From the NCBI GenBank assembly GCA_047967505.1, contig CM106538.1: a stretch of DNA of 64,000 nucleotides; one strand, 5' to 3'. The position numbers and the translations under genes were made by a program. The stretch's first letter is position 1. Each line of letters opens with the position of its first letter. This document shows, piece by piece, positions 15,013-55,136 of the stretch. The notes beneath the pieces were generated by a model, which saw only the letters and a program-made list of their open reading frames with translations, was not told the origin of the DNA and ran no database searches. Source of the stretch: Dipteris shenzhenensis (Eukaryota).

Positions 15013-15259
15013 CTCGGGGGGGTCACTATGTATAAACCCTCTATATCACGTGCGTTCAAGGCCTATATTTAAAGTCCCTTATTTGTAAAAAATTTCATTA
15101 ATAAAATGTACCCCTTTTCTATACAAATCTGTAAATTTTTTCCAAAACTATTTTAAATAGTCCCTTATGTATATTTATTTCTGTAAATTTTAGAAATAAA
15201 AAAAATCCTTTTGTTGAACTCACGTGATAGGGTTACATATGATGAGTGACCCCCCCGAG
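15013..15259 (-). mobile_element. 247-bp MITE of the P-like family, inserted in the Gypsy RT/RNase H region
   Basis: TIRs CTCGGGGGGGTCACT / AGTGACCCCCCCGAG, flanked by a duplicated ATTGGGAGA (9 bp). The ends match those of 32637-44805. Confidence 0.95.
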
Positions 15260-21813: not shown

Positions 21814-21951
21814 AATGGTTGTAAAACAAGCTCGGTAGGGATTTACTATTTGGCATTTTCGTTCAACAAGCACAATGGTAGTAAAAGAAGCACGGTAGGG
21901 ATTTACTATTTGGCATTTTCATTTAACAAGCGCAGTGGTAGTAAAACAAGC
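21814..21951. repeat. 60-bp tandem repeat (~2.3 copies) abutting the ABCG fragment
   Basis: AATGG(T/A)GTAAAA..AAGC.CGGTAGGGATTTACTATTTGGCATTTTC.TT.AACAAGC repeated with period 60. Confidence 0.85.
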
Positions 21952-22609
21952 ATAGGCGGTTTCCCTACGTTCATAGAAGACATGAGGGTAATTAGCTCCT
22001 TGAATTGCTCGTGTTGAATCCTATTGTGAGCAAGACTAAAACTAAAAGGACACAAGAGGTGCATCCGTGCTTAAGATGTCTCCCATCTCAGGTTTTCGAA
22101 AGAGAGATTAAATGGTCATTACGGTGTCGCATCCTTCGTTGTGGTGAACGCTGTTTCATCTACTCCTTACTTACTGCTGGTATCGATGCTTCCTGGAGCC
22201 ATAGCCTACTTCTTGGTTGGTCTCCACCATGGAGTGAAACCTTTCATCTACTTTGTACTCACACTGTACCGTTTGCATGCTTGTGGTGGAGAGTCTCATG
22301 ATGACGGTTGCAAGTGTAGTTCCAGATTTTCTCTTCGGTATAATTATAGGAGCCGGTATTTAGGTGGGTTGGGAATATATATAGAAGTCGTATTACGTCA
22401 GAATTGATATACAAGTATAAAGAAATGCTCTTGATATCCCAGACTAACGAACATAAGTGATGACATCACGGCCCATAAGCTCGTTTGAAATGTGCTTACA
22501 GGGCATATTCATTCTCGATAATGGATTCTTCCGTCTACCTCATGATACTCTGAAACCCTTTTAGAGATACCCACTTTCATTCATGGCTTTTTACATGTAT
22601 GCAAATCAG
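21951..22609 (+). pseudogene. ABCG half-transporter (ABCG11/WBC-like) transmembrane-domain fragment with 3 exons and 2 introns
   Basis: IGGFPTFIEDMR|gt (to 21987); ag|VFER..LNGHYGVASFVVVNAVSSTPYLLL...VVESLMMTVASVVPDFLFGIIIGAGI* (22092-22363, frameshifts and a premature TAG); ag|GIFILDNGFFRLPHD..KPF.RYPLSFMAFYMYANQ (22502-22609). Confidence 0.85.
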
Positions 22610-22770
22610 TTTCATGGGATCCTCATCACTCCGTGGATGTTGGTTCAATTTTGTTCAGTCGCTGGTTGACTGTAAGATTTTGGAGTCTAATATGCACAAT
22701 TCAAAGTTGGGTTGCTCATCCATCGCTTAGGATTCCTCATTTACCTTACTCCTTCCCCTTTACCTTACAT

Positions 22771-25700
22771 AAGCTCTCTAATAAGTGAAAAGGCAGTTTT
22801 GGGAATGACTCAACTAGAGTTTATAGCTTGCCTTCTACTAAGAGGATTTCTATTAATTGTCCCTTGGATTTATGCAGGTCACCAAGGAGACTCTCTGTTC
22901 GCTTTGTGCCTGGTTAGCAATCCAAAATCAAAACTATAATTGAAATAAAGGTATGATAGCTTTTCTTTCTCTGCTCAATAACCCATCTGTTGGCAAATTT
23001 TCGATAAGTTGATAAGTTTTTTTTGGGGGGGGGGTTTCTTCTTCACGTATGTTCGATGTAGTGTTGTCTTTTCATATAGTATGTCAATGTCATAACTTTT
23101 TTATTCTTGATATTACATGACTATTAGATATCGATGTAGTGTCGTATTTAGCCTTTAGACATAATATGTCAATCATCTGATTTGTAATGTAATATTTGAG
23201 TCAATTACTTGGGCCATGCATTTGCATGGTGCTTATCTTTCCGCATTGGATCGTATTACTCGATTATATGTGCGGTTAAGTAAGTAAGTCTGCATTTCAA
23301 CATTTGGTTGTAATATTCAACCTTTGATGTCGTTACAAGGACTCCTTTTCATTGTTTTGAAACTAGCTCGACACTTGGTCGTATCATTCGACTGTATGTG
23401 TCGTCTCTTGACCTTAGAAGAGTAATAGAATTCAACACTTTGTTGTTTATTTGACTTTTGGTGTTGTTCCTTAGATATATAATTTATAAAATAAGTAGGC
23501 TTTGACACTAGGTCGTTTATTTGGCTTTCAGTGTTGTCATAGCTTATTTCATAAAACAAATGTTTAAACTTTGACACAATTTACTAGAAGCTTACCTTGG
23601 ATCAACATTTTTCCATACTTCAATGGAGGGAGTATTGGAGACATGATGATGCAGCTACCCATGGATCAGATTTGTACACGGTTCTCAATGAACACACAAA
23701 GTCAAACTCTCATATCAAGTCGCTCATGACAAAAGATGAAAATCCAAAGGTAGCACTCACTGGCTTGCGAGGGCATCCTCGAAAGGATAAGGATCATGAT
23801 CCAAAGCAAAGATCTCTTAGCAACTTTTTGGTTTCAACAAAAACTAGAAGCCTAGGGACGAGTGCTTTCTCTGTTGATTAAAGTTTTAATAGAGAAAATG
23901 AATCTTCTTTTGTAAATTTTGACTTGCTATGTTGGGGCCTTTGGAGCCATGAGGTCAAAGTAGGTAACAAGTATGTCAAGATAAAGCCTTTCTTAGATGA
24001 TCAATGTGGCAGGAAGTATTGGTTTATAGAGCGTCATGTTACGGCAACGTTAAATAATGGATGTACTGATATTCATGTGGATGGATGCTTTTGTCACATA
24101 AGTTGCATACGCATTTCACAAGATGGGCAACCATTTAAAGGATTTACATGCCACCATTGCAAGGGGATAGTTAAACTTGCTCACTTTAGAATGAGATTGT
24201 ACAGAGAAGAGAAGGTTGAGAATAAGAGAGGAGATAGGGGTACCGGTTGTGGAAGAAGGCTAGATTATCTTACAAAGAGTGAGCTTAGAAATGCAAGTCT
24301 TTTTGCTAAAAGTCGAGTAAGACACCTTTCTAAGCAACTATGGTGGACAAAGTCTCAGGTTGCCATTCTTTCAGTAAGAGTCTACACTTTAAGAGAAGCT
24401 AGCATAGAGTCTCTCAATCGAAAGGATGTAAAACGATTTTGCAACAATATAATCGAAGCCCATAGATTGGAAAATTTTGGTGGTAAAGTTGCCTTATGGG
24501 ACTTTCTACAAGATGTTGCCACAAACATAATTAAGTCAAGTGCTAGACAAAGATATAGTGAGAACACAAAGGCAATATTTGAGGTTGCAAGAATGTGGGG
24601 AGGTCCAAGGTTACATGACTTCTTGAGTTCCAACCTCAATGGACCTTCTTTATCAACGAACAAAGCGAGGGCAAAGACTTGCTACTCAATTTGTACCTAG
24701 TATACATGGATATCTTTTTGATGCAATCACTAAAATTTATGAAAAAGAAAAAGAAAAGCATGGAATCATGTCAAGGATTCCCTTTATCATAGTGGAAGAT
24801 GAAACTACAATAAAGAAGTGGATAAGGTAGCCTCCTTTTTCTCTAAATTATTTTCATAATCTAAATCTTGTTTTTGAATGCAAGAGGATTGCATATGATC
24901 TTACAGACTTCTGCTTACTATTGCTTGTAGGTGGAATCCAAAGGATGACATGCTTGTGGGTTTTGATGGATATAAAGTAGATGATCATGAGTGCATGACT
25001 ACATGCATGATCAAAGGGGGAGAAGGACAAAAAGGATATGATCAGATTATTGATGCATTTCAAAATTGTGTCATTGGTGGACGTGTAAGAGTTTTTCTTG
25101 CCAATCCATTGCATGATGCACTCCCATGCTTGGTTCTTGCACTTCATTGCACTTGTGGCCGATTTGATGCAAATTTTGTTCGCAAGCAATGGGATGCTAT
25201 TTTAAACTTATGGAATGAGAAGCTAAAGACCACGGTTGGTCCAATTATTGGACATGCATCTAATGGTGATAGTCGGCGAAGAATATTGATGATCTCCGAT
25301 TATCTAGATAAAAGAGATAGTAGATTTGGGATAAAATGGGATGGATGGCCTCTCTCAGCAAAAGTTTTAGAAAATCAAGTTTTTGGACTGCATGATCAAG
25401 ATTTTGTACATAATGGAAAAAAGTTAGTCAATATTCTTGACAAGCCTAAGTGTCAATTGTCTATTGGCAATGTTTGGATCACCTTAAATCATGTCATTGT
25501 TGTGTATGATGCTTTTTCTATCGACAAGCATATGCTAAGGGAGGGAGACATTAGGCGAGATGACCACCAAAATTGGGCGAGAGCTCAAAGAATATGCAAT
25601 AGACAAGTGCAATGATGCTTGGGAGAATTGGCAAACAATGGAATTCTTAGAAAAGAGAGGAGCATGCTAGGAACACAAGCTTATCTTGAAATTGCTGGAG

Positions 25701-28243
25701 AGTACATCGACATCTTCTTATCTCCACATTTGAATCTTGTGGATCGAGTCTATATTGCGGGCAAAGTCTCTTTTTTCTTTCAAATTTGGAGGTCTTGGAT
25801 TTTTCATCATGCCAACTATACATTGAATAGAAACTTCATAACTAAGGAAGCTTTCTTAAATGTGCAACTCTCATGCGATTTTGTGGTCCTACTGTGATCA
25901 AGTACTTTAGAGAATTTTGTCTAGGCCTAAGGTGTCCTTTACATCTTACAGGTTTAGATGCAATTGAAATCTTCTACAGCAAGATTGGAAGCATGGTGGG
26001 ATAAGAACGCGGTTATGACTTGATGGATATGCTACATAGTGCAGGTAGTATGAATAGGCTTGCACACTTTGAATGAAAAGAGGATTGTCCTCTATTTACA
26101 AGGGCACATAAGAAGCAAGAACATGTTTGGAGAGAATTGAATCTCAAAGAGAACATGTGAGAAGCTAATCTAGGGGACTATGAGTGTGTGTCAACTGATG
26201 ATAAAATCATCGAAGCATTGAAGAAGGGACTAAAAAGTGCTCAAGAAAGGTGTGAAAGTTTGTGTAGGGTGAGAATATGAAGTGGTGGATGGAACCTTGG
26301 TCAAATGGATTTACAAATGCATATTCACAAGAATCTGATTCTGAAGAAGAAGACCAATGTCAAGCAAATCATGTGTCAGAAATAGATGATAATGACAACG
26401 ATGCCTCCATACGTGAAATCAGACATGTGGTGGATTCTCTCCTAGATGAACAAGAAGCAGTGAGCCCAGTTGTTACCATTGATGGTAAAACTCTCTTCAA
26501 GTCCACATTGGTAAGCCAACTTAATGGAAATCCCACACTCTCTAAAGATAGACTCACAAGGGTTCGCCAAGGAGTATACTACTCTAAGGAAGATATACCT
26601 CTTGCTACATCAAATGAGAACCTATTTGGAATAGGTTCCGATTGTGCCGCATTCTTTCACGAAGGACACAAAACAAGGAAAAGCAAAAGGAAATGCAATC
26701 CAAGATCTTTGCAAAAAAAGAAAACACAAGCTATATGGTACCTTGGACGAGTTCAAAAAATGAGGAAGGTTGGTGGGGGGTATGTAGAATATAAAAGAGG
26801 GTTCAACCTTTCAGATAGACCTTTTGGAGTAGAAGTCCAGCTTGGGTGGTATCAAACAGCAAACGGTTCAAGATGCTTCACATATGACCTTAGAGACCTT
26901 GACATGATAAATATTGAGAGCGTAATTGCATTGGCAAACCTCACCTATGAGTGTAATAGCAATAAGTATACTTTAGATGAGAATGATTGGAATGTATTCA
27001 ATGACTTTGTAAAGGGGCATTAAACACACTTGGTAGGGGCTTCTTTGTAATCTTTCTAATATGATAAAAGCTTTATTACAATTATTACTATGCGCTGAGT
27101 TTAGTTTGATTTGTCTTGATGGATTTTTTAAATTATTTTTTTGCAAGACCTTGAATCACAGAAGTGGATGATTTGCAACTGCCTAGGTACTTTTGTTTAT
27201 ATATATGCCATAAAGCAAGTTTGAAAATGCTATTTTAGCATCGGGTACAACAAGATGTTGTATGAATGTAGCCTCTATGGTTTTAATACCATGGTTTGAT
27301 ATGACTTAGTAAGGGTTTTCATGGAAGAAAAAAAGTGGAAAGGTCTTCTATAAATGTGACAAAGAAGAATGATATTTCCATCTTTTGCTTCTCTAATAAT
27401 CAAGACATGGAAAAAGTGGCAAGGCCAATCGTGAATGTGGCCGAAAGCATGGTGTTTTAGTTTTCTCTTCTCTACTCCTTCTCTAACAATAAAGACATGG
27501 AAGAAATTACTAAGTCTCAGATATACATTGTTTAAACAAGTTTCCAATCTTTCACATAAGAAAGCTCTAGACGTTTGTATTTGGCAAGAAATAAATATTA
27601 TATATCGTCATTGAATGCTTTGTAAAATTGGCTAATCTATCATCCCTTCTCCTAGCTGAAACACCCATACATATGGTTTTGTAAAAAATTGAAAGATATA
27701 AAGCATTTATAAAAGCTCCCAATATTTCATGTAGTATTTTTATAAAGGTTGTTTCTTGAGCTCTTTACGTGTTTCAAGTGACTTTTGCACAATTCTTTGC
27801 TTTTGGTGTATGGCACACATGATTTGTCTTGTTTGATATTTGTTCCTCTTAATTTTTGCACTATGTCTTTATTCTTTGTTTCTCTTGCCTTATGGCATCA
27901 TCAAGACACAAACCCATCTTAAACTTATGCATTGCCCATTATTACAGTCGGTACCTCAATTTTTTGTGTGTAGATTCAAATAATGCAGGTGATGTAGAGA
28001 TCTTGCATTCTAAATATCTCATCCTATCTAAAGGGACTCCAAAAGTAGTAGTGTATGACTCACATAAGGACTTTTAAAATTCCTCTAGGAAAATAAATAT
28101 ACTTACAAAAGGGGATTTATAAATTTTCCCAAAATTTACAGAGGGGATACTAGGAAATACTACAAATAGGTTACATAGGGATTTAGAAAAGAACCCTTGA
28201 ACACACGTGATATAGACATATTACACTAAGTGACCCCCCCAAG
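22771..28243 (+). mobile_element. P-like DNA transposon, 5'-truncated and internally deleted copy (inverted relative to 32637-44805)
   Basis: Highly similar to the reverse complement of ~32637-39840. About 2 kb is replaced by ~85 bp at ~23580-23663. The 3' TIR AAGTGACCCCCCCAAG ends at 28243; no left TIR was found. Confidence 0.92.
23664..27023 (+). pseudogene. P-element-like transposase pseudogene (copy 1)
   Basis: ORF pieces 23597-23881, 23924-24700, 24639-24830, a GT-AG intron at 24827-24930, then 24950-25615, 25619-25897 and 26277-27023. It has several stops and frameshifts, and the second Asp is mutated (HASNGD). Confidence 0.85.
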
Positions 28244-29156: not shown

Positions 29157-29290
29157 ATCCTCTCCTTGTGGATTTCCTCGATCCACATCCTCGCATCATG
29201 TAGTCCACATCCTAGGGTGGCTACTTTATTACATTCCTATACCATACTTTAGCATCTAATTATGTGCTCATGGCACCATATTCCTCAACA
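29157..29290 (-). mobile_element. Truncated 5' LTR of the same Copia family as 7661-7952
   Basis: The reverse complement starts TGTTGAGGAATATGGTGCCATGAGCACATAA, identical to the start at 7661. Confidence 0.85.
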
Positions 29291-32200: not shown

Positions 32201-32636
32201 TGCTAGCAACATGGAACGAGAGATTATCAGATAGGATATTGATATTCGCTAGTAGTTGGCAGTCCTACAGAGAGGGAAGAGTTGATACAACATATAGATG
32301 CTTGGATACAGGATTGCCTTGTTGGAGCAAGGGCTCATCAATAGAGATATAAGTTTGCCAAAGAATCACCTATGCACCATGCATGTGCACAATGGGAAAA
32401 TTTGCATGCCCATTGACCCAGATGTTTCCCAATCAACAAAAAACTTTGCAAGGACATGAAAATTACTCTAATTAAAAGGGCCATCTGACACTTGAACATT
32501 CCATGATGGTCCACACATGCGAATTTCATGCACTATGCACCATGAATGTGCACGAATGGGGCTTGCCCATCCACCCAAATATTCCCCTATCAACACAAAA
32601 CTTTGTGAGGACATGTGACTTACTCTAACTTACACT
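29291..32636 (+). repeat. Diverged ~180-bp tandem satellite array (about 16-17 units), with an unrelated insert at ~32003-32368
   Basis: CATTCCATGATGGTCCAC-type motif recurs at ~29533, 29713, 29887, 30074, 30253, 30434 and 30618 onward. TGCACCATGCATGTGCAC also recurs in most units. Confidence 0.92.
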
Positions 32637-33598
32637 CTCGGGGGGGTCACTTAGTGTAATATGTCTATATCACGTGCATGCAAGGGTTCTTTTCTAAATC
32701 CCTATGTAACCTATTTGTAGTATTTCCTAGTATCCCCTCTGTAAATTTTGGGAAATTTTATAAATCCCCTTCTGTAAGTATATTTATTTTCCTAGAGGAA
32801 TTTTAAAAGTCCTTATGTGAGTCATACACTACTACTTTTGGAGTCCCTTTAGGTAGGATGAGATATTTAAACTGCAAGATCTCTACATCACCTGCATTAT
32901 TTGAATCTACACACAAAAAATTGAGGTACTGACTGCAATAATGGGCAATGCATAAGTTTAAGATGGGTTTGTGTCTTGATGATGCCATAAGGCAAGAGAA
33001 ACAAAGAATAAAGACATGTGTGCAAAAATTAAGAGGAACAAATATCAAACAAGACAAATCATGTGTGCCGTACACCAAGAGCAAAGAATTGTGCAAAGTC
33101 ACTTGAAACACGTAAAGAGCTCAAGAAACAACCTTTATAAAAATACTACATGAAAGATTGGGAGCTTTTATAAATGCTTTATATCTTTCAATTTTTTACA
33201 AAACCATATGTATGGGTGTTTTAGCTAGGAGAAGGGATGATAGATTAGCCAATTTTACAAAGCATTCAATGACGATATTTAATATTTATTTCTTGCCAAA
33301 TACAAACATCCACTAAGTCATATCAAACCATGGTATTAAAACCATAGAGGCTACATTCATACAACATCTTGTTGTACCCGATGCCAAAATAGCATTTTTA
33401 AACTTGCTTAATGGCATTCATATAAACAAAAGTACCCAGGCGGTTGCAAATCATCCACTTCTGTGATTCAAGGTCCTGCAAAAAAATAATTTAAAAAATC
33501 CATCAAGAGAAATCAAACTAAACTCTGTGCATAGTAATAATCGTAATAAAGCTTTTATCATATTAGAAAGATAACAAAGAAGCCCCTACCAAGTGCAT

Positions 33599-36500
33599 TT
33601 AATGCCCCTTTACAAAGTCATTGAATACATTCCAATCATTCTCATCTAAAGTATACTTATTGCTATTACACTCATAGGTGAGGTTTGCCAATGCAATTAC
33701 GCTCTCAATATTTATCATGTCAAGGTCTGTAAGGTCATATGTGAAGCATCTTGAACCTTTTGCCTTTTGATACCACCCAAGCTGGACTTCTACTCCAAAA
33801 GGTCTATCTGAAAGGTTGAACCCTCTTTTATATTCCACATACCCCCCACCAACCTTTCTCCTCATTTTTTGAACTCGTCCAAGGTACCATATAGCTTGTG
33901 TTTTCTTTTTTTGCAAAGATCTTGGATTGCATTTCCTTTTGCTTTTCCTTGTTTTGTGTTCTTCATGAAAGAATACGGCACAATCGGAACCTATTCCAAA
34001 TAGGTTCTCATTTGATGTAGCAAGAGGTATGGCGAACCCTTGTGAGTCTATCTTTAGAGAGTGTGGGATTTCCATTAAGTTGGCTTACCAATGTGGACTT
34101 GAAGAGAGTTTTACCATCAATGGTAACAACTGGGCTCACTGCTTCTTGTTCATCTAGGAGAGAATCCACCACATGTCTGATTTCACTTATGGAGGCATCG
34201 TTGTCATTATCATCTATATCTGACACATGATCTGCTTGACATTGGTCTTCTTCTTCAGAATCAGATTCTTGTGAATATGCATCTGTAAATCCATTTGACC
34301 AAGGTTCCATCCACCACTTCATATTCTCACCCTTTGGCTTCATATGCAAACTTTCACACCTTTCTTGAGCACTTTTTAGTCCCTTCTTCAATGCTTCGAT
34401 GATTTTATCATCAGTTGACACACACTCATAGTCCCCTAGATTAGCTTCTCGCATGTTCTCTTTGAGATTCAATTCTCTCCATACATGTTCTTGCTTCTTA
34501 TGTGCCCTTGTAAATAGAGGACTATCCTCTTTGCATTCAAAGTGTGCAAGCCTATTCATACTACCTGCACTATGTAGCATATCCATCAAGTCATAAGCGC
34601 GTTCTTGTCCCACCATGCTTCCAATCTTGCTGAAGAAGATTTCAACTGCATCTGAATCTGTAAGATGTAAAGGACACCTTAGGCCTGGACAAAATTCTCT
34701 AAAGTACTTGATCAGTAGGACCACAAAATGGCATGAGAGTTGCACATCTAAGAAAGCTTCCTTAGTTATGAAGTTTCTATTCAACGTATAGTTGGCATGA
34801 TGAACAATCCAAGACCTCCAAATTTGAAAGAAAAAAGAGACTTTGCCCGCAAGATAGACTCGATCCACAAGATTCAAATGTGGAGATAAGAAGATGTCAA
34901 TGTAATCCCCAGCAATTTCAAGATAAGCTTGTGTTCCTAGCATGCTCCTCTCTTTTCTATGAATTCCATTGTTTGCCAATTCTCCCAAGCACCATTGCAC
35001 TTGTTTACTGCATATTCTTTGAGCTGCAGCCCAATTTTGGCGATCATCTCGCCTAATGTCTCCCTCCCTTAGCATATGCTTGTCGATAGAAAAAGCATCA
35101 TACACAATAATGACATGATTTAAGGTGATCCAAACATTGCCAATAGCCAATTGACGCTTAGGCTTGTCAAGAACATTGACTAACTTTTTTCCATTATGTA
35201 CAAAATCTTGATCATGTAGCCCAAAAACTTGATTTTCCAAAACTTTTGCTGAGAGAGGCCATCCATCCCATTTTATCCCAAATCTACTACCTCTTTTATC
35301 TAGATAATCGGAGATCATCAATGTTCTTCGTCGACTATCACCATCAGATGCATGTCCAATAATTGGACCACAACCGTGGTCTTTAGCTTCTCAATCCATA
35401 AGTTTAAAATAGCATCCCATTGCTTGCGGACAAAACTTGCATCAAATCGGCCGCAAGTGCAATGAAGTGCAAGAACCAAGCGTGGGAGTGCATCATGCAA
35501 TGGATTGGCAAGAAAAACTCTTGCACGTCCACCAATGACACAATTTTGAAATGCATCAATAATCTGATCATATCCTTTTTGTCCTTCTCCCACTTTGATC
35601 ATGCATATGGTCATGCACTCATGATCATCTACTTTATATCCATCAAAACCCACAAGCATGTCATCCTTTGGATTCCACCTACAAGCAATAATAAGCACAA
35701 GTCTGTAAGATCATATGCAATCCTCTTGCATTCAAAAACAAGATTTAGATTATGAAAATAATTTAGAGAAAAAGGAGGTTACCTTATCTGCTTCTTTATT
35801 GCAGTTTCATCTTCCACTATGATGAAGGGAATCCTTGACATGATTCCATGCTTTTCTTTTTCTTTTTCATAAATTTCAGTGATTGCATCAAAAAGATATC
35901 CATGTATACCAGGTACAAACTGAGTAGCAAGTCTTTGCCCTCGCTTTGTCGTTGATAAAGAAGGTCCATTGAGGTTGGAACTCAAGAAGTCATGTAACCT
36001 TGGACCTCCCCACATCCTTGCAACCTCAAATATTGCCCTTGTGTTCTCACTATATCTTTGTCCAGCACTTGACTTGATTATGTTTGTGGCAACATCTTGT
36101 AGAAAGTCCCATAAGGCAACTTTACCACCAAACTTTTCCAATCTATGGGCTTCGATTATGTTGTTGCAAAATCGTTTTACATCCTTTCGATTGAGAGACT
36201 CTATGCTAGCTTCTCTTAAAGTACGGACTCTTACTGAAAGAATGGCAACCTGAGACTTTGTCCACCATAGTTGCTTAGAAAGGTCTCTTACTCGTCTTTT
36301 AGCAAAAAGAGTTGCATTTCTAAGCTCACTCTTTGTAAGATAATCTAGCCTTCTGCCACAACCAGTACCCCTATCTCCTCTCTTATTCTCAACCTTCTCT
36401 TCTCTATACAATCTCATTCTAAAGTGAGCAAGTTTAACTATCCCCTTGCAATGGTGGCATGTAAAGTCTTTAAATGGTTGCCCATCTTGTGAAATGCGTA

Positions 36501-37554
36501 TGCAACTTATGTGACGAAAGCATCCATCCACATGAATATCAGTACATCCATTATTTAATGTCACCTTAACATGACGCTCTATAAACCAATACTTCCCACC
36601 ACATTGATCATCTAAGAAAGGCTTTACCTTGACATACTTGTTACCTACTTTGACCTCATGGCTCCAAAGGCCCCAACATAGCAAGTCAAAATTTACAAAA
36701 GAAGATTCATTTTCTCTATTAAAACTTGAATCAACAGAGAAAGCACTCGTACTTGGGCTTCTAGTTTTTGTTGAAACCAAAAAGTTGCTAAGAGATCTTT
36801 GCTTTGGATCATGATCCTTATCCTTTCGAGGACGCCCTCGCAAGCCAGTGAGTGCTACCTTTGGATTTTCATCTTTTCTCATGAGCGACTTGATATGAGA
36901 GTTTGACTTTGTGTGTTCATTGAGAACTGTGTACAAATCTGATCTTGGAGGACATAAACGCAACCATGCATCATCATATTTGCATCGCACCTTCTATCAA
37001 TTGTATGCTGCATGCTTGCCTTCTATCAATCCTTTACCATAAAGTTCATTACACTCATGACACCAAATTCACACATGGGGCACCCCATTGAAGTCCTCAG
37101 AATGCAACTCAAACTTATCATCCCTTAACACTACCATTTCCTTTAGCTTTGATCTAACTCTATCAGATTCACGTTGCCAACATTCAAGAATAGTTGGGCT
37201 TAGTAATCTACTAGAAAGCTTTGAAGACATGTGCACTTGGGCATCAAGATTTATGTCATCAGCTAGTTGAGTGCAATGTCTTTTACATGGATAAGGAGTT
37301 TCCTCTATGCGGCATAGACTTCTCTTGATGTGCACTAAGAGTTGATCATTGATTGTCCATCGTTCCTCTTGCCGTTTGGTTATTATATATTCGTCCTCAA
37401 CAAACTCAAAGGGTTCCAATAGAAGCTCATCACCTTCAATTTGTTCACGAACATGAGAGAATGTGGGATGACTTGTGTCTCTTGTGACCCTAACAACACC
37501 TAATTCCTCCTTATTATCATAGTCAATCACTTGAATCGTGAAAAAAGATGCCAT
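33599..37554 (-). pseudogene. P-element-like DDE transposase (copy 2; near-complete, few lesions)
   Basis: ORFs 37069-37554 and 35779-36990 (same frame), GT-AG intron 35679-35782, then 35318-35698, 34008-35321 and 33599-34075. Motifs: GGPRLHDFL..GPSLSTTKR, IVEDET, HASDGD, QDFVHNGKK, DRQNWAAAQRICS, GTQAYL, SDAVEIFFS. Confidence 0.88.
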
Positions 37555-39656
37555 GATAGGAGACCGATGTACTTCAAAATAAAATGAGAACCTTAATTAT
37601 AACCCCCCTCCACCTGTGTGTGCATGACCTGCAAAATTTAGATTGCCAATTTGTGCATAACTGGTGAGTTTAAATTTAATCATTATAATAAAAATTTGTA
37701 TGCATGACTCATGGGTTTGAGTTTAACCATAATAAACACAAACTCTTCCCAAATTAATACACAATTCTAATACACAAATATAAAATTTTGAAAAAAAATA
37801 AAAATACATTCTAAGACACTTTACACTTTATTAAATTCAAATACTATAAACACATATACTAGTATTCAAAATGCAAGAAGTTACAGCACGAAGATAAAAA
37901 TTTGAGAATTTAAAAAATATATATATTATAGTACTTTATTAAATTCAAATAGTATAGATGCATATACTAGTATTCAAAATGCATTGAAAGAGTAACATTA
38001 TAGTTTATAAACATAATTGTCCAAGAGTAGCTTTATAATAAAATCGGATTAATAAAACTGAGGCATCCTCTCAACTGCAGGCTGCAAACATGCATGGGGT
38101 TGAGTGTTAAATCTTGCTAGTCGATTATTCATCTCGGCCAGTGTCATTCTATTTTGTTTTTCCACAAACATATAGTTAGTTGCATTGAAATAAATCTGCT
38201 GCAACTTGCCACTCCATGCTGACTGTTTTGTGTAATCCTCTTTGAAGTAGTATTCCTTACACTCCTTATAAAAATTAATAACCTCTTTAATCATGTATCC
38301 CATGGCAAACACATCTAATTCTTTGCTCCTTGCTCATCTTACTTATCCCTATACAAAGATGCCGCCTAATGACTTTGAGCCAATTTTTCCTTTGCTCTGG
38401 TTGCATCTTTTCACAAAAGGATTTCTGGCAAAACATGCATGAAAAAACCAAGTATTGAGAGAGAATCTAAAATATATTCATATTTTAAATAATCAATGAA
38501 CACAAAGTTAATTACAATAAAGAACACAACGAACTCCATTCTTATGAAATTTGCATCATGATTACATGGGCCTACCATTTGAGTGTGTGGAGAAGTGTGT
38601 GTTAGACACTAGATAATCAACATTGGAAGAGTATTTCAAATAATATCCAATGGTTGATGACCCACAATTGATTAAAGATAAGATTCAACTTAGAATCCTT
38701 ATACATAAGCAGCTTTCAAAGACCCCATGGATAGGCATTAATCAAAGACACAAATATCATTGGCTCTAGCATTGTTACCTTAGATGTATGAGCATGAATC
38801 TCAGATGTATATTTATTGGAAAGTTTACAACCTCTACACACTAGCATTTATGCAATGGTCCCCTATATTCTACACAAAATATTTCCAAAGAGGACAACAA
38901 CATCAAAAGTCGAATAAACGCGACCAAGTGTTGAAGCCGAAACTATCATACAACACTGATAACCTACAACAACACTGAAAGCCAAATAAATGACCATGTG
39001 TCGAAGTTTAAACATTTGTTTTATGAAATAAGCTACGACAACACTGAAAGCCGAATAAACGACCTAGTATTGAAGCCTAATTATTTTATAAATTATATAT
39101 CTAAGAAACAACACAAAAGTCGAATAAACGACAAAGTGTTGAATTCTATTACTCTTCTAAGGTTGAGAGACGACACATACAGTCGAATGATACGACCAAG
39201 TGTCGAGCTAGTTTCAAAACAATGAGAAGGAGTCCTGGTAACGACATCAAAGGTTGAATATTACAACCAAATGTCGAAATGCAGACTTACTTACTTAACC
39301 GCACATATAATCGAGTAATACGATCCAATGCGGAAAGATAAGCACCATGCAAATGCATGGCCCAAGTAATTGACTCAAATATTACATTACAAATCAGATG
39401 ATGGACGTATTATGTCGAAAGGCTATATACGACACTACGTCGATATCTAATAGTCATGTAATATCAAGAATAAAGAAGTTATGACATTGACATACTATAT
39501 GAAAAGACGACACTACATCGAACATACGTGAAGAAGAAACCCCCCCCCAAAAAAAAGCTTATCAACTTATCGAAAATTTGCCAACAGATGGGTTATTAAG
39601 CAAAGAAAGAAAAGCTATCATACCTTTATTTCAATTATAGTTTTGATTTTGGATTG

Positions 39657-40211
39657 CTAACTAGGCACAAAGGGAACAGAGAGTCTCCTTGGTGACCTGC
39701 ACAAATCCAAGGGACAATTAATAGAAATCCTCTTAGTAGAAGGCAAGCTATAAACTCCAATTGAAAACTCCAGTTGAGTCGTTCCCAAAACTGCCTTTTC
39801 GAGATGCAGTGCCTTATGAACAAACTTATTAGAGAGCTTGTGCTGTTTTGAAGCGGCATGACATCGTATTGCACTAAGCTGAATATTCACCGATCCAATA
39901 GTGCCAAATTCACTGCGACATTTTCTCATTTTTTGGCATGTTGTATAAAAAATACGCCCAAGCTTTTTGTCAAAGAATGCCCATTCAAAAGAAATAGCCC
40001 AAGAATCATTCCAAGCCAAACAAGCATTTTTAATTCTTAAGACATCATTTTCTTCACCCGGTCCTGGTATCTCTTGTAGATCTGAGTCGCATGTCACATG
40101 AGATGATGATGCTACATCAGACAAGGATTTTCTCACACTCTTTCTTTTCACGGGAGGGATCAATCTGGCCATTCCAGGAAAAGCAAAAAGAGTTGTTTGT
40201 CTTTGAGTCAT
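39657..40211 (-). CDS. Second ORF of the transposon, with a degenerate TTF/C17orf113-type zinc finger
   Basis: WNDSWAISFEWAFFD..GRIFYTTCQK...F..GS.NIQLSAIRCHAASKQH fits W..W...F.W....C..C...H.S..H, with the first Cys replaced by Tyr. Probably a pseudogene. Confidence 0.55.
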   Translation of the reverse strand: MTQRQTTLFAFPGMARLIPPVKRKSVRKSLSDVASSSHVTCDSDLQEIPGPGEENDVLRIKNACLAWNDSWAISFEWAFFDKKLGRIFYTTCQKMRKCRSEFGTIGSVNIQLSAIRCHAASKQHKLSNKFVHKALHLEKAVLGTTQLEFSIGVYSLPSTKRISINCPLDLCRSPRRLSVPFVPS

Positions 40212-41469
40212 GGTTGGGCGTAAATCTGTAAAATATTGCAGTGCAATGACTACTTAGATGCTTGCAAAATTCGGGTCAAACAACAAGCAGTTGAAAGTTG
40301 AATCAATAATTCTACATTTACTATTTAGCATAAAGTTCATGCAGGTCAAAGAATAGATTCAAGCTCTCAAAAAAAACAAATGCAGCAATCAGGTTGCAAT
40401 CATATGAGGTAAAAAGGAAGCAAAGATGGCCTAAGAAAACAACAGACCTGATACTGAAGAAAAAAACATCATAATAAGTACAAAAAACTTGCCTGGCACC
40501 TGACTAGAACTCGGGCTGAAGCTTTACGAGAAAGAAGGAGCTACCCCAAAGCAACCGTCACTGCACAAATGAAAGACAACACATAAGAAACCCCCTTTTA
40601 GAGAAACCAAGAAAGTAGTTGGAAGAATTTATAGTACCTGTATATCCAATAATGCAAAAATAGCATTACAAAGCTAAAGTATAGCAAATACATGTTTTAT
40701 TATATGTGTTGGCAGCCTGCTAATAACATGGATAAGGATGCCTCCATGGCCAATGCTTATGTGGTAGCAAGACTACCACATTGACGTGGGTGGGTGATCT
40801 GCCATGTGGCAGATAAGGTATCCACAATGTCTCGGCCAATCGCGCGACCTACATCTAGAGACGGGGCGCTGGTCCATCACTACCAGTGTGTTGTTGCAGG
40901 TTGTTGCAGCGTGTATGAGAGCTCGTCTAGCCATGTAGTCAAGGCTGTCTTGGAGTTGGCAGGAGCCATCATTGGTGCCCGTGAAGGAGCTCGTTTGTGA
41001 GCTGAGAGGCAGCTATAGAGAGTCATAGGAGGCTGGTCATCGTTGGAGACAGTGGCTTCTACGAGTAGCTTGACTGCATGGAGGAGCCGTTGTGTGGTGT
41101 TGGGCCATCGTGATGGCTATTGAAGCTCATTCATTGGTCGTTGGCTAGGGAGGCGCTTTGGAGCTCGATAGAGCTCACAGTCGTGTCATGATGGCTATTG
41201 AAGATGGACTAGAGGAGGCACTTTGGAGCTCGACGGAAACAGAGCTCGAACGTCCTCGGTGTGCCGATGCTATCCAAGCAATTGTCGAGTAGCTACGCGA
41301 AAACCCAAATGGCAGAGATGAGGAGTTCTTCCAATTGCATCAGTGCGCTCATGAAACATCCGAATCTCAGCTAGTGTGCTCATCAAACATCCGACACTCA
41401 GCTACTGTGCACACAGGAACAGAGAAACATCCAAATCTGAGCTACTGAGGACAGACAGAGAGCGCGAAC

Positions 41470-41853
41470 CTAAGAGACATCACGGCTGCAGCCACCGACA
41501 CTCCGGCTATGGAGTTGAGATTGGGAAGCTGCGAGAGGAGAAGTTGAGAGGAGCCGAAAATGACAATCCAGACAGACAATCCCAAGCTCTGGCAGCTGCT
41601 GCAAACCAAGGTATGGAAGTTGCGAAGGCATGTTCCACCGGTGACCATGTAAACAATGTCTACTCCAACTTCGACCAGCAATTGCTGGGGGACGACGATC
41701 CACAAGCCGAGCTCTCGACCAAATGCATACTGTCCTAGCTCGTGGTATCGATCAAAACGCTTCCCAGGCACCATTTCATGCATCTCTACCATTTTCCATA
41801 GCGTGTACAACGTAATCACCCAGGAGAAGATAAGCACCACCACTCCTAGTCCC
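41470..41853 (-). pseudogene. LHT: Captured single exon of a lysine/histidine transporter (AAAP family, LHT1-like)
   Basis: GLGVVVLIFSWVITLYTLWKMVEMHEMVPGKRFDRYHELGQYAFG..LGLWIVVPQQLLVEVGVDIVYMVTGG...LSQLPNLNSIAGVSVAAAVMSL. It is 384 bp, bounded by ttcag| and |gt. I recognised no other LHT exon in the window. Confidence 0.92.
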
Positions 41854-44289
41854 CTGAAATCAGCTCGCGCATTGATTATTGAATTGATGAAAGCTCAAAT
41901 TTTTTTGCAAATTGTGACCAGATACATCGATGATTTCGCAATCCAGCCTGGAGCCCTTGCCATTGTCGCAGATGCATGTCGAGGAGGTGTTGACGTTGAG
42001 ATGGAGCTTCACAGGACAGCCAACAGGGACTAGCGTCGATGGACAAAACACAACGGGAATCGAGCGACGCTCCTTCAGAACACCCAGTCGATGCACAAAA
42101 CACAAACATAGCCAACGGGTTGCAGCACCAACCTATACCTTGTGTAGATCTCTGCATAGATCTCTGCAGCAATCAAACTCCATCGACGACCTCCACGGGC
42201 TCCTACCAGTGATTGCTGCAAGTCCTGAGCCTCATGTGTAGGCAGCTGCCCTGACCCTGACTTGGGTGCAGTCCGTGTAGTAGTGCTCGGCACCCAGTAA
42301 TGCTGGATGAGAGTAGAGACTGTGAAGGGGAGGTTGTAGGAGCTACAAAACACAAGAGAGAGAGAGGGGTCGGCAGGGAGGGGGGGTTGAGCAGGGAAGC
42401 AAAAGAGGGAGGAGGAGGTTATGAATTGAGGCAAATTGTACACTAATGAAAGAAGAGGAGACTAAGCCAAACCTGGCAATGCCTTATAGGTTAGAAGGGA
42501 GATGAGGTTATCTTGATCCTCCTCCACAAACCATAATTCATTCAACTAAAACCCATATATCTAAAGCTATATAAATTTTACGTTTTTATATATGAAAACA
42601 TGCACACTTTAAAAACCTGCATTTATATTCTAGTCGACCAAAAAACAGGCATGTTTTATGAATGAAAAGCCATAAAATTTGCATTTTTAATCTTCCAAGT
42701 GTAATACCTATGAAACACTTACAAGAACAATTTCCATAAACCTGCAAGTAGAAAAAAGTCAGGTGAAACCTAAAACTTTGTAGTTTCATTGTAAGGCTTT
42801 GCAAGTTTTTGGGGAACACTGCAATGGATGCTAGGGCCTAGCCAAAGAAATGAAACTTTGTGACCGATGATGCCAAATAGATTCTGAACACAAGAGTCGC
42901 ATTATCATTGGTGTAGAGACAATAAAGGGAAGAGGATGGAGATGCAGTAGGCATTTAGCAAATATAGATTCCAACCCATAAGATCCATAGCTTATAATGG
43001 GTGGAATCCATAGTTTCCACACACACTAAATATTTGTGAAAATTATTTTTCCCTTTCATAGGCATATAACCATGGTGGATGCCCTTTGGCCTCCTTTGCC
43101 CCACTCTCTCCTAGTCCTCCTAGCAACACCTTGTGCCTCCCCTTGCCTTGTGGAAATAGTAGCCCTCCTGGCGAGCATTTTCTCTTTGCCTTACACTGAT
43201 CTCTGCTCATCCATTGCTTCAACTCGCCTAGCCATGTGGTTGCCCTCCTATCCACCAAGACTCCTAGCTATGGTGAAAGGGAGGTGGCTCAACGGGTTTC
43301 CTTGTGCCCCCCTCAACCCTGTGTACATTAGGTTAGCTACTTCTTGTTAAATTATGCTAGGTTTCATTATTACTGTACATTGTGTTAATTGGATGTATGA
43401 CTATAATATAACTGTATTTAGGACCTATGCTCCAACGCCATGCTAACACCTATGTACAACCACATCCATGACAACTTGGGGAAATTTTAGCATTGTCCTT
43501 CTAATAACTAATCCACCACTAGATGCCGCAAACAACAAGATGCCATTTCTAGGCATTTTTAGGCATTGTGTAGCATATGCTGCAAACAACAAGATGACAT
43601 TTCTAGGCATTGTATAGCGTATATAATACCTCAAGAAAAGATACGGTCTAAGGAAGCTAGAAAGGGTCTTCTTTAATCTTTGAAGATACCATACATAAGA
43701 GCCTTCTTTAGCTCTCAATGTAGCAGACACAAGGGCTTATGTTCTCCTAACCTACAAATAGCTTTATTCTTTCATTTACTTTGAATTCATCATTTTTACC
43801 ATATTCTAGTTCAAACTGTCACTGGTAGTGATGCTCATGGTACTTGTTGATCTACAACTCTAGGCACAAGTGCATAAAAAACCCTCAAACATAATAGGAT
43901 TCTCACTCAATAATAAATTCTCATTTTGCTTTTAATCCCTTGTTGCTATATGGATCCTATATTTTCCCAAGTGGGAGAATCCTTTTGAATAGGGCTATCT
44001 AAAAATAAATACCTTACTTCTTTACTCTCACAGGTTTTATCCAATGGATTTAATTATAGGAGTGGCTCTCCACTATCTATCCTTTTTTAAATAATAGATC
44101 AATTGTTTGAGAGCCAGAAGGATATTTACAAAGGCAGTGCTAAATAGACTGAGTAGAACTTAAGAAAATCAAGTATAAGAGGCATCAACTTCAAAATACT
44201 CCTCCACCATTGATTCAATGCAATCCCTCTGTGGATAGAAAGAAAAAAAAAGAGAATGACAAGATTTAAAAACTTCAAAAAATAAATTC

Positions 44290-44535
44290 AAGCATTCTAA
44301 TCTCATCCTAATGAAAAGGCCAAAAAAGAGCAATAAAGAGAGAAAATTATAGCATCATAACCTCATCCTAATGCAAAGGCCAAAAAGAGCAATAAACTCG
44401 CAATAAAGAGAGAAAAGTTTTTATAATTCTCTAGAATTCAAGAAAGCATAGTATCCTTATCTCATCCTAATGCAAAGGCCAAAAAGAGCAATAAAGAGAG
44501 AAAAGATTTTTAGAATTCTCTAGAATTCAAGAAAA
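44290..44535. repeat. Subterminal tandem repeat CTCATCCTAATGCAAAGGCCAAAAAGAGCAATAAA (3 copies)
   Basis: Copies at ~44302, 44362 and 44461. Confidence 0.8.
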
Positions 44536-44805
44536 TGCAAGAGGAGCGCTTACTCATTTCAAAAGGAAAATGCCAGTACTAGCATTTCAAAATGTCCCAT
44601 GACATAAGCCACTCTACGCAAATATCCATGTCACATGTTGCAAGCTTCTAGATAATTTTTAATATAAAATGCCCTTCTGTATATTAACCTTTGGGTATTA
44701 AATTACTTCCTTATGTATATATAATTATGTAAGTAATTGAATTAATAAAAACCCATCTGTTGAACTCACGTGATAGGGTTACATATGACAAGTGACCCCC
44801 CCGAG

Positions 44806-44876
44806 CTTACACTCATGCAAGTTTGCATGGCCATCTGACACTTGACTATGGTCCACATATGTACTTTTCATGCACG
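44806..44876 (+). repeat. Continuation of the ~180-bp satellite unit interrupted by the transposon
   Basis: CTTACACTCATGCAAGTTTGCATGGCCATCTGACACTTGAC...GGTCCACATATG continues the unit broken at 32636. Confidence 0.85.
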
Positions 44877-50048: not shown

Positions 50049-51409
50049 AAGGAAAAAAAAAACCTTATAAGAGTGTTAGCTAGCAAATAATTAGATCTTA
50101 ATAATATAATAAGTGGTAGGAAGTGTATATACACTACACCTTCGACACGACCTAGAAGAGAGCACGTACGAAGTAAAACTACAAGTTACGAGTGAATGAA
50201 AACTAAGCACACATCAAAGACATACTGCGCTAATGAAACAACTCAACACAACATAGGTAGCAAGCATCAAATAATGACACAGCAGCAGCGCACTAAACAA
50301 TAAGTCTAAGACACCACAATAACAGCTTCTATACCATCGACAAAGCTTAGATGACAAGTAGTGTTTCTCTACACTGTGCGTATGTGATGACTACGTAGCC
50401 CGAGCAACATGGAGGTTTGTAGCCAATAGTAACATGAACATAATGCACCAAGAAGCCCATTAATGCCAGGAAGGATTCTAATAACTTACGGGAGATAGAC
50501 AGCTGGTTAGCACGTAACACAATAGCTAAGGAAAGACAACTAAGACCCTTGATCCACAAAACCCAAAGCTACGAGAAAGCAAGAGAACAAGTGTGCGCAT
50601 GCAACGCTGTTACGTACATGAGACAATGCCATCGAAAAGGTAAGCTAGGTCTTGGTATCGCAAAGAAGGGGAGCTAAAGACTGAGAGGTATGGGAAGGAG
50701 TGGCAAGCAACTGACAAAAGAGGCTACGACTAGAGGTAATGTAGTCGAGAAGAGAGGTGGCAACACAATTCGCAACTAAGGCAAATATAGGTAGCGTAGG
50801 TAGAAGGAATTTTAGTCAAGGTAGGGTTTTTTTAGATCGTTAGCTACCACACCTAGTAAAGGCACCGAAAGTAGGTCATCCACCATACCATGTACATAGG
50901 TAGAGCTAATTAACCTCCTATGGTCACAAATTAGGAGTAAATAGTAAAAAAGGACAAAATTACGGCCAAAATGACGAACCCCTTTATACACGTAATGGAA
51001 TAGTAGGCACAAGCATACCACAAATTTACAATAATTGTGTGAAGGCGTAGAGTCCTTGGAATAATCATCCTTATTAGAAATATAATGGAAACATTGATGT
51101 AGTTCCAAGAATTAACAAGGTTCCCAATGTATAGAATTAGGGTTCATTAATAAAAGGAACATACACCAAAAAAAAGGGTTTTATGGAAAGCAACTGCCAA
51201 TTACATCGATGTTTGAATACCATACCATCTTCTATATCAAGAGATACTGCCACCATATCCACTATGTGAGCTACATCAAACCAACATAAAATGTTAATAG
51301 AATGTGTATTACATGAGGGGTGTTAATGTGTTTATGTGTATATGACACACATGATAGGCAAGTCAATTGTGTGTAGCTTTGCATACGTTTGTGAGTGATC
51401 AAGTATATA

Positions 51410-51589
51410 TCATGTGTGTGTGTGTGTGTGTGCATATGTGTGCATGTGTATATTTGCAATGATTGTGCTTTACAAGTGTGTATATGTGTGTGGGTGTGTG
51501 GGTGTGTATGTGTGTGTAAATGTGTGCATATGTATGTGTATGTAGGCATAAGTAACATGTGTGTGCGTGTGCGTGTGCATGTGCATGTG

Positions 51590-51660
<71 letters not shown>
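51410..51660. repeat. Compound (TG)n/(AG)n microsatellite
   Basis: Directly visible. Confidence 0.95.
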
Positions 51661-51662
<2 letters not shown>

Positions 51663-51675
51663 CTCAAGATTTATG

Positions 51676-51922
51676 CTCGGGGGGGTTACTCATCATATGT
51701 AACCCTATCACGTGAGTTCAACAGAAGGGTATTTTCTATTTCTAAAATTTATAGAAATAAATATACATAAGGGACTATTTAAAATAGTTTTGGAAAATTT
51801 TTACAGATTTGTATAGAAAAGGGGTACATTTTATTAATGAAAAAATTTACAGATAAGGGATTTTAAATATAGGCCTTGCATGCACGTGATATAGAAGGTT
51901 TATACATAGTGACCCCCCCGAG
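51676..51922 (+). mobile_element. 247-bp MITE of the P-like family
   Basis: TIRs CTCGGGGGGGTTACT / AGTGACCCCCCCGAG; 8-bp TSD GATTTATG. Confidence 0.95.
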
Positions 51923-52134
51923 GATTTATGTGGAAGAAGAAACACACCTTACTGGGAGTGGATTATAACAAAGAACTTTCTTAGTTTTTTTCTCAAAAAG
52001 ATTGTTATCCTTCTATTTTTGTAAATTGAATGTATGAGAAACCTACTCTTGCGAGCATGGGGATCCATGAAATGTGACTAAAATGTAAGAAGATGTTTTG
52101 TTATTAAATCATAGAGATGAGCTACTTTGTCTTG

Positions 52135-52203
52135 GGAGAGAGAAAGAGAGAGGAAAGGAGGGAGGGAGGGAGAAAGGGAGGGAGGGAGGGAGGGAGGGAC
52201 GGG

Positions 52204-52234
<31 letters not shown>

Positions 52235-52283
52235 GGGAGGGGGGGGAGAGGGGGGGGAGGAGGAGGAGACAAAAAGAGAGGAA

Positions 52284-52322
<39 letters not shown>

Positions 52323-52368
52323 GGGAGGAGGAGACAAAAAGAGAGTAAGAGGGAGACTGAGAGAGAGA

Positions 52369-52407
<39 letters not shown>

Positions 52408-52436
52408 GGAGGGAGGGAGGGAGGGAGGGAGGGAGG

Positions 52437-52504
<68 letters not shown>
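52135..52504. repeat. Polypurine (GA)n/(GGGA)n/(G)n compound microsatellite
   Basis: Directly visible. Confidence 0.95.
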
Positions 52505-52510
<6 letters not shown>

Positions 52511-53140
52511 ATTTTTTATTTTAATAGTGTTTTTATTAAAGTATTTTTAGGGCAATTCCCCCTTTATAAAGTGCATTACTAAGTGTTATTTGAATCAGAG
52601 TCACTATTCACACTCCTATGTAACCTTACTTTCCATAGCCTTCTTTTTCATCTTCCCTAGCATCCTCCCACACTCATGGCTTCCCTTAGAGAAGACTTTG
52701 ACCAATGTATTTCACCCATGCATTTGCACACCTTAGCAGACCAGATTTACCTTATCTTTTGCAAGCAAATCCATGTCTAATCGTACTTGAAATCTTACAT
52801 TCCTATTGATAGTCCATCTCTTCAGTTTATTTATAGACTTATCCATGGGTAATCTATCATAATTGCTAACTCCCCTCACCAATGGGGCCCTTTGGATATT
52901 TTGATCTCTCTTGACCAAAGCGCTAACTTCAAGAAGACTCTAGGTAGGTCCATGGATAATGTCCATCTCTTGCTCTCTTCTTGAGTATGCTATTCCCCTT
53001 AGAGATGCTTCAACTTTCCCCCTGCATTTGATCGAGAGAGATATAGCCTTACTACTCTCCTCACAACTACCAAGTTTGATGAGGATGTTGAACAATAGCC
53101 CAAGGGTCCATAAGTGGTGGAGTGGGTCCATCCACAAGTG
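52505..53140 (-). mobile_element. Possible 3' end of a decayed LINE
   Basis: A decayed ORF-like stretch (PLHHLWTLGLL...) ends in an A-rich tail that runs into (CT)n on the minus strand. No RT motifs were seen. Confidence 0.25.
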
Positions 53141-54889: not shown

Positions 54890-55136
54890 CTCGGGGGGGT
54901 CACTCATCATATGTAACCCTATCACGTGAGTTCAACAAAAGGATATTTTTTATTTCTAAAATTTACAGAAATAAATATACATAAGGGACTATTTAAAATA
55001 GTTTTGGAAAAAATTTACAGATTTGTATAGAAAAGGGGTACATTTTATTAATGAAAAAATTTACAAATAAGGGATTTTAAATATAGGCCTTGAACGCACG
55101 TGATATAGAGGGTTTATACATAGCAACCCCCTTGAG
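54890..55136 (+). mobile_element. 247-bp MITE of the P-like family
   Basis: Left TIR CTCGGGGGGGTCACT, decayed right TIR AGCAACCCCCTTGAG; 8-bp TSD TCCCATGA. Confidence 0.93.

Follow-up and report, generated by a model that had tools for sequence, protein, structure and literature searches.

A lysine-histidine-transporter gene fragment carried inside a bounded, P-like transposable element of Dipteris shenzhenensis

A 64-kb stretch of Dipteris shenzhenensis DNA (64,000 nucleotides, referred to throughout as the window) contains a transposase-bearing plant element, assigned here to the P superfamily, with a mosaic of host-gene cargo: a fragment of a gene for a lysine-histidine transporter (LHT) lies within the element together with the 5' end of a hAT-type gene. 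The anatomy of the captured LHT fragment and the borders of the element can be read directly from the window, and expressed, parent-type LHT mRNA ceases to follow the window at either end of the fragment. The phenomenon itself is familiar; the plant P-like family that serves as vector has no description in the literature that we searched. We consider it probable, with considerable room for doubt, that the LHT exon is cargo derived from a DNA-level copy of an LHT gene, acquired through template switching in an ancestral copy of the element, and that the composite then transposed.

The exon reported in an earlier note on this DNA proved sound: its limits (41853..41470), its open frame and both of its splice sites were borne out by Pfam, by tblastn and by spliced contigs (Table 1). 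The enclosing open reading frame (ORF; 41894..41442, minus strand, 150 aa) matched the Pfam family Aa_trans (E=1e-24; score 87.5 bits, cutoff 25.6), and its best relatives in the protein collection were lysine-histidine transporters; among the matches listed, the nearest single-copy proteins came, by source name, from the ferns Adiantum nelumboides (78%) and Ceratopteris richardii (74%). Searches by tblastn with fern LHT proteins gave identities of 101/130 (78%) and 106/145 (73%), at E=2e-63. An AG acceptor (41855-41854) and a GT donor (41469-41468) bound the exon, and reading resumes in phase across the 177-nt intron into the start of the next LHT exon. Those 58 nt, at 41292..41235, correct the statement in the same note that no other LHT exon was present, which otherwise stands: tblastn with six fern/lycophyte LHT proteins, for all of which two places alone recurred, found no further LHT exon in the 64-kb window, that is, none over 22 kb to one side and 41 kb to the other.

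The fragment corresponds to amino acids ~75-220 of a fern LHT. It comprises ~147 of ~450 codons and has no start codon, and for these reasons it cannot encode a transporter, the complete ~450-aa coding sequence being absent. No near-identical copies of the exon were found among proteins: within the best 120 matches of each search, the maximum identity was 78% for longer proteins and 76% for those of 82-263 aa (best 120 of 558), in a collection from which the species is seemingly absent. Decay is the likely fate of the fragment; that it might act on the parent gene through a chimeric RNA or an siRNA is speculation.

Table 1. Positions of the LHT fragment, the enclosing element and related features of the window
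Feature	Position	Strand	Basis or remark
Left TSD copy CTTACACT, 8 bp	32629..32636		Rebuilt empty site aligns with satellite monomers
3' TIR	32637..32652	minus; reads CTCGGGGGGGTCACTT on + strand	Same end in left copy (28243) and 3 MITEs
P-like transposase gene, right copy	33599..37596	minus	~100-nt intron near 35781-35681; at least 2 frameshifts (~35370, ~34015)
hAT-type gene 5' end	39837..40604	minus	5'UTR exon, 267-nt intron 40226-40492, ATG 40211, 125 codons
GC-rich island holding LHT fragment	40750..42450	minus	GC 0.49-0.53 by segment vs 0.33-0.39 for element
Next LHT exon, initial 58 nt	41292..41235	minus	LHT mRNA homology ends at 41235
LHT intron, 177 nt, GT..AG	41469..41293	minus	Joint 41292 to 41470 in contigs of X1, X2, X3
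LHT exon, complete, stop-free, 384 nt	41853..41470	minus	Pfam, tblastn, splice sites, spliced contigs
5' TIR	44790..44805	minus; ...AAGTGACCCCCCCGAG on + strand	Terminal ~108 bp match one MITE end
Right TSD copy CTTACACT, 8 bp	44806..44813		Satellite monomer goes on to ~44875
MITE, 247 bp	15013..15259		Same two ends; 8-bp TSD TTGGGAGA (9 bases match)
MITE, 247 bp	51676..51922		Same family; 8-bp TSD GATTTATG
MITE, 247 bp	54890..55136		Same family; 8-bp TSD TCCCATGA
Second (left) element copy	22767..28243	+	94-97% identical to right copy; 3' TIR present; transposase frameshifted
ABCG-type transporter pseudogene fragment	21946..22608	+	At least 3 exons with introns, one frameshift, one in-frame TAG

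The window was compared with contigs from three public runs of related samples (X1, X2 and X3). None of these runs is on record as RNA, none comes from Dipteris shenzhenensis itself, and each covers a share of only 0.07-0.09 of the stretch. All three contained spliced LHT contigs: one of 1,778 nt, one of 1,718 nt, and a pair of 1,442 and 616 nt. In every run these contigs omitted exactly 41293-41469, matched 41235-41292 with no differences, and differed from the window at 9-11 places over 41470-41847 or 41470-41854 (~97% match). They depart from the window before 41235 and behind 41854, and their loose ends, when translated, extend the LHT protein in both directions. Thus, close relatives have a complete, expressed LHT gene, and the window has a genomic-type piece of it alone.

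Eight of the exon differences were listed individually. Six are synonymous third-position differences, T in the window and C in the mRNA when read on the coding strand, five of them at CpG; two alter a residue, one at a Q that is invariant in six aligned fern/lycophyte LHTs. This pattern is compatible with decay of a methylated copy as well as with a parent that differed slightly, and we press neither reading. A contig joining the LHT exon to element sequence was not seen in the three related-sample runs, in which all LHT contigs enter LHT exons, a result that is not informative for the species itself. Two joints in X1 (40563 to 42319 and 42353 to 42769) have 30-nt sides and non-canonical ends; they were disregarded, since a shared GGAGCTAC word had probably misled the alignment.

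Genomic LHT loci on metagenome contigs (23 examined of 80 fetched) allowed a comparison of intron positions. Those bounding the exon recur in 11 and 8 of the 23 loci, respectively, and both occur jointly in three. At the position equal to 41235, all 23 loci continue without an intron. This absence makes 41235 more likely to be a capture breakpoint than a splice site and disfavours its interpretation as an exon-intron boundary, a candidate suggested by the GT that follows; an intron specific to this lineage at 41235, in place of a breakpoint, is less likely but conceivable.

The position of the exon between TIRs, as the earlier note had it, was also upheld: the exon lies in a 12,169-bp element, here termed the right copy, whose inverted termini (32637 and 44805) adjoin the 8-bp direct repeat CTTACACT on either side. 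Its 16-bp TIRs (CTCGGGGGGGTCACTT) and 8-bp TSD (CTTACACT) are both perfect, and a subterminal motif, TATCACGTG, is present ~30 bp inside each end and conserved in the MITEs. The motif GTGACCCCCCC occurs eight times in the window against 0.42 expected. The 3' sides of both large copies end in ...GTGACCCCCCC, and an occurrence at 44792-44802 is oriented as the 5' end of the right copy should be, so the element was defined as 32637-44805. Both ends of the large element align to the two distinct ends of the MITEs, and 8-bp TSDs accompany all four complete elements of the window (one large, three MITEs).

The element is inserted in a ~180-bp satellite that is present on both flanks. When the empty site was rebuilt from the flanks plus one TSD copy, it read as a continuous satellite monomer, 132/161 identical across the junction. 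The satellite flanks and intact borders together place the LHT fragment inside a bounded transposon insertion, not in a gene remnant beside one. An LHT gene relic split by a transposon is ruled out by the satellite flanks, the intact TSD and the lack of LHT exons outside the TIRs; the earlier note had held that the remaining LHT exons, if found outside the TIRs, would speak against capture, and tblastn of the whole window placed none there. The satellite covers 29290-32636 and 44814-44875, with an inverted patch at 7950-8217, and its monomers are 60-88% alike. Other repeats of the window include the remnant of a retrotransposon RT/RNase H region (14410-15045, minus strand; Pfam RT_RNaseH, E=1.4e-19) that is interrupted by the MITE at 15013-15259, long GA/CT- and CA/TG-rich low-complexity tracts at 51271-52546 beside a MITE, and a dispersed, inverted repeat pair (3510-5057 and 20736-19248) that is 66-69% identical.

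Read on the minus strand from the 5' TIR, the element consists of ~2.2 kb of AT-rich DNA, the 1.7-kb GC-rich island, a short AT-rich stretch and the hAT-type piece. Only the terminal ~108 bp of the AT-rich ~2.2 kb inside the 5' TIR match the MITEs. The island beyond the LHT exons and intron, comprising 40750-41234 (485 bp, with 65-78-bp repeats) and 41854-42450 (intron-like), has no recognised source, and a Pfam search of ten other ORFs in 40773-43736 (the island and the DNA 5' of it) yielded nothing meaningful. The captured LHT interval would comprise some intron-like DNA ahead of the whole exon, the 177-nt intron and the 58-nt piece; its 5' limit falls somewhere in 41854-42450, and the insert measures 0.6 kb or more and may reach 4.9 kb.

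The second foreign piece contains a zf-C17orf113 zinc finger (Pfam, E=5.9e-10). Contigs of X1 and X2 match 39837-40225 plus 40493-40563 (~97%) with the 267-nt intron removed, and diverge from the window before 39837. Among relatives of this piece (eight scanned of 22 found), zf-C17orf113 was present in all eight, DUF4371 in six at E<=2e-4 (one reaching the Pfam cutoff), and Dimer_Tnp_hAT above the cutoff in two; on the domains of these relatives the piece is identified as the 5' end of a hAT-type gene. The piece meets element DNA at 39837-39842, where a 6-bp CAYAAG is common to parent and element (microhomology), and homology between the left and right copies begins at 39842, exactly at this junction. 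Like the LHT exon, for which the earlier note had described the arrangement, it lies upstream of the transposase and on the same (minus) strand. An ATG-initiated ORF of 184 codons (39657-40211, minus strand) fuses the hAT-type zinc-finger N-terminus in frame to element sequence, and could, by prediction, specify a truncated DNA-binding protein. A TATAAA is located ~30 bp upstream of ~40604, where contigs from related samples start to match the hAT-type piece.

The transposase ORFs have relatives of 800-1,600 aa, mostly unnamed or 'hypothetical', whose few named sources are one fern and two liverworts; the best of these relatives is 71% identical over a 460-aa ORF. One relative, P0123 (1,122 aa), is covered by the window copies from aa 3 to 1099 in tblastn, at 45-56% identity, with the right copy at 47-56%. 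Given the transposase frameshifts, at least two in number, the right copy is probably unable to move by itself; at one frameshift place, a contig of the related-sample run X2 is without 2 nt at 35369. No Pfam family was assigned to the transposase in the window ORFs or in seven full-length relatives, except for a weak TNP-like_GBD match (E=0.13) in one relative, and a sequence profile of the transposase family produced a chance match alone against the PDB (E=4.9).

A structural model was more telling about the likely affiliation of the family. The model of P0123, built from a 40-sequence alignment (mean pLDDT 79, core >90), retrieved the Drosophila P transposase first in Foldseek (6p5a_A; E=3.1e-10, target TM 0.70). 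Compared by VIA with 6p5a and 6pe2, it gave Z 26.0-26.1 and rmsd 4.6-4.7 over 403-408 of 442-456 residues (chain residues 134-566), and the next folds were Transib (Z 12.0), RAG1 (<=10.2) and Hermes (<=9.0). The predicted fold, which is that of the relative and not of the broken gene in the window, is an RNase H-like core interrupted by a P-type (GTP-binding) insertion domain. Neighbours in a protein atlas carry TNP-like_GBD and RNaseH families, a lead only. The motifs EDET, SDGDS and SDxxE..FS, candidates for the acidic catalytic triad (D, D, E), are nearly invariant in the 40-sequence alignment and present in the window ORFs. Pfam matched no THAP domain in eight window ORFs or seven full-length relatives (E<=1); the N-terminus of the transposase has other Cys/His modules. 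We use the term P-like on the strength of the modelled P-transposase fold of the relative and the 8-bp TSD, which together support this assignment. The TIRs do not appear to belong to a hAT element: the hAT-type sequence amounts to 125 N-terminal codons alone, in one copy, and two copies having different flanks both show the P-like gene running without interruption to the 3' TIR.

Traces of related elements were also seen. A third, far more diverged P-like transposase remnant (60907-61914, minus strand), with ~40% amino acid identity to residues 810-1106 of P0123, points on sequence grounds to what may be an older family of the same superfamily. Contigs from related samples join 33474/39623, 35676/39622 and 39681/44771, a 14-nt filler being present in one case. 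They resemble family members in relatives that have undergone internal deletion, and their breakpoints cluster at 39622-39681.

The two large copies of the window are inverted with respect to one another (22767-28243, plus strand; 32637-39842, minus strand), with the ~180-bp satellite between them. The left copy is without a stretch equal to 36945-38996 of the right copy, and its 5' end was not found by TIR motif or by word-size-7 BLAST of 42451-44805 against 15260-22800. Upstream of the left copy, and in its orientation, an ABCG-type transporter fragment (Pfam ABC2_membrane, E=1.7e-8; score 34.7 bits, cutoff 26.9) abuts the element. Intron-like DNA connects the two at 22767, which is the same element coordinate at which the foreign DNA of the right copy begins. 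A search of the window with loose motifs revealed no ABCG nucleotide-binding-domain motifs or later exons. Finding two transporter fragments at one junction reflects either recurrent capture at a preferred break or coincidence. The earlier note had inferred that this P-like family transduplicates host genes. The LHT piece within a P-like element bounded by TIRs and TSD is in accord with that view; as a claim about the whole family, it goes beyond a single bounded copy and a suggestive, ABCG-abutted one.

In the origin that we favour, an ancestral copy would have suffered a gap or a double-strand break, and the LHT and hAT-type pieces would have been copied into the element by template switching as this lesion was mended; the composite element would then have transposed into the present satellite site. 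Both the repair route and the later transposition are suggested by established P-element biology (PMC8277862, PMC7776569) and by the microhomology; Drosophila P elements are known to undergo gap repair that leaves filler DNA (cited in PMC8277862), and such a route has been proposed for Pack-type elements too. A different sequence of events would have the element already resident in the satellite when an internal break was repaired from ectopic templates, in which case the cargo was never mobilised and the family does not truly move host DNA. Such in-place filling would agree with the presence of LHT cargo in one copy alone (the only TSD-bounded copy with that cargo in the 64-kb window), with the broken transposase of the right copy, with the microhomology at 39837-39842, and with animal Pack-TIRs, most single-copy examples of which are credited to a process of this kind in the sections of PMC8277862 used here, with TE-internal breakpoints and microhomology at junctions. 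The same sections describe a cis bias, the parent lying mostly within 15 kb in animals, whereas here the window is free of LHT exons over 22 kb to one side and 41 kb to the other, a modest argument. That the cargo comes from at least two unrelated sources suggests several events, and the left copy adjoins a fragment of another gene at the coordinate where the foreign DNA of the right copy begins. On balance, we regard in-place filling as unlikely.

The LHT block might instead have arrived in another element, such as a Helitron or a Pack-hAT with the hAT-type fragment as its 5' part, that inserted in the P-like element and then lost one or both ends; on that reading, capture would not be the work of the P-like family. 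A distance of 150 bp separates the hAT-type 5' fragment from the GC-rich island, with which it shares its orientation, and ~2.7 kb of the interior (40750-41234 plus ~2.2 kb in 42451-44697) is without a recognised source, as a decayed carrier might leave it. A hAT-like terminal candidate, CAGGC..., is present at 40719; however, it occurs once in the window, is equalled by 15 of 100 shuffles and, were it the hAT end, would leave the LHT block outside the hAT piece. A simple scan of 39843-44697 found no hairpin-plus-CTRRT 3' end on either strand, and no TIR pair or TSD surrounds the LHT block. The earlier note had itself named a separate nested element as evidence that would weigh against capture by the P-like family, and no TIR, TSD or Helitron-like end of such an element was found around the block; we judge this route quite improbable. 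Still more remote is a chimeric join in a repeat-rich satellite region, creating the LHT block or the whole inverted arrangement in the assembly. The region is indeed dense in repeats (two inverted copies, satellite and MITEs), but the 3-6% divergence between the inverted copies, along with their unlike flanks and indels, means that they are not the fold-back of one read; TSD, TIRs and satellite continuity are exact; and the 9-11 differences between the exon and the expressed LHT mRNA indicate a separate locus.

The proposed capture by an ancestral P-like copy, followed by transposition, invites comparison with known systems. In the sections of PMC8903248 used here, the plant elements with documented Pack-TYPE capture are MULE, CACTA, hAT, PIF and Mariner (see also, for Pack-TYPE transposons, the corresponding parts of PMC6379663); gene-fragment transduplication by these five groups is familiar from flowering plants. 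Like these, the present element is of the cut-and-paste type and holds intron-bearing host gene fragments between its TIRs, the whole flanked by a TSD, with mosaic cargo in an interior position. It differs in its vector, which would be a P element and thus outside the superfamilies surveyed in those sections of PMC8903248. Moreover, Pack-TYPE elements are defined as non-autonomous, with no transposase gene, whereas the right copy keeps a frameshifted one. The label 'Pack-type' applied in the earlier note is therefore a misfit, since a transposase gene corresponding to aa 3-1099 of P0123, with at least two frameshifts, is still present.

With Drosophila P and vertebrate P-like/THAP9 elements, as treated in the relevant part of PMC7776569, the element shares an 8-bp TSD, short TIRs with subterminal inverted motifs, and internally deleted derivatives; with the Drosophila P transposase it would also share an RNase H fold carrying an insertion domain (6p5a, 6pe2; Z 26), as modelled for the relative P0123. 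Drosophila P is 2.9 kb long, in contrast to 12 kb here, and the present element has a plant host and host-gene cargo. The protein is also longer (~1,100-1,500 aa) and has no Pfam THAP domain, unlike P transposases; THAP domains are described as confined to animals in the same part of PMC7776569. The MITEs recall BuT5, a Drosophila P-associated MITE, in that both are short, non-coding derivatives with the termini of a divergent P element; unlike BuT5, as portrayed in the portion of PMC3698922 consulted, the MITEs here are 247 bp long, lie in a plant genome and have no inversion role shown. Animal Pack-TIRs resemble the present case in having non-TE sequence within TIR-element sequence and microhomology at breakpoints, with gap filling or template switching proposed. 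In the sections of PMC8277862 cited above, 208 hAT and 115 TcMariner cases account for most of a set of 370, and the median insert is 224 bp, a length that the present insert, with 0.6 kb or more and perhaps as much as 4.9 kb, exceeds.

The literature searched contained no report of P-superfamily gene capture in plants, its scope being main texts and not supplementary tables, which may hold animal P-type cases. The terms 'fern' and 'P element' did not turn up in a term search of a 2026 review on plant gene capture (PMC13317346).

A broader possibility, which we put forward tentatively and consider rather doubtful as a general rule, is that a THAP-less land-plant branch of the P superfamily ('Pack-P') captures genes recurrently as a family. 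Repair of breaks at a single fixed internal coordinate would draw on host DNA, sister copies would acquire different cargo (LHT plus a hAT-type 5' end in one, ABCG in the other), and the composites would be mobilised.

The proteins of this P-like family currently stand as 'hypothetical' in fern and liverwort records. The window provides a clean and fully bounded example, complete with TIRs, TSD, MITEs that match it and a reconstructable insertion site, and such an example permits both annotation of the family and a catalogue of its cargo in fern-type genomes. In these genomes repeats dominate, and pseudo-exons derived from gene fragments can mislead gene prediction. If true, the common junction with two different transporter fragments would make the mechanism of capture directly testable.
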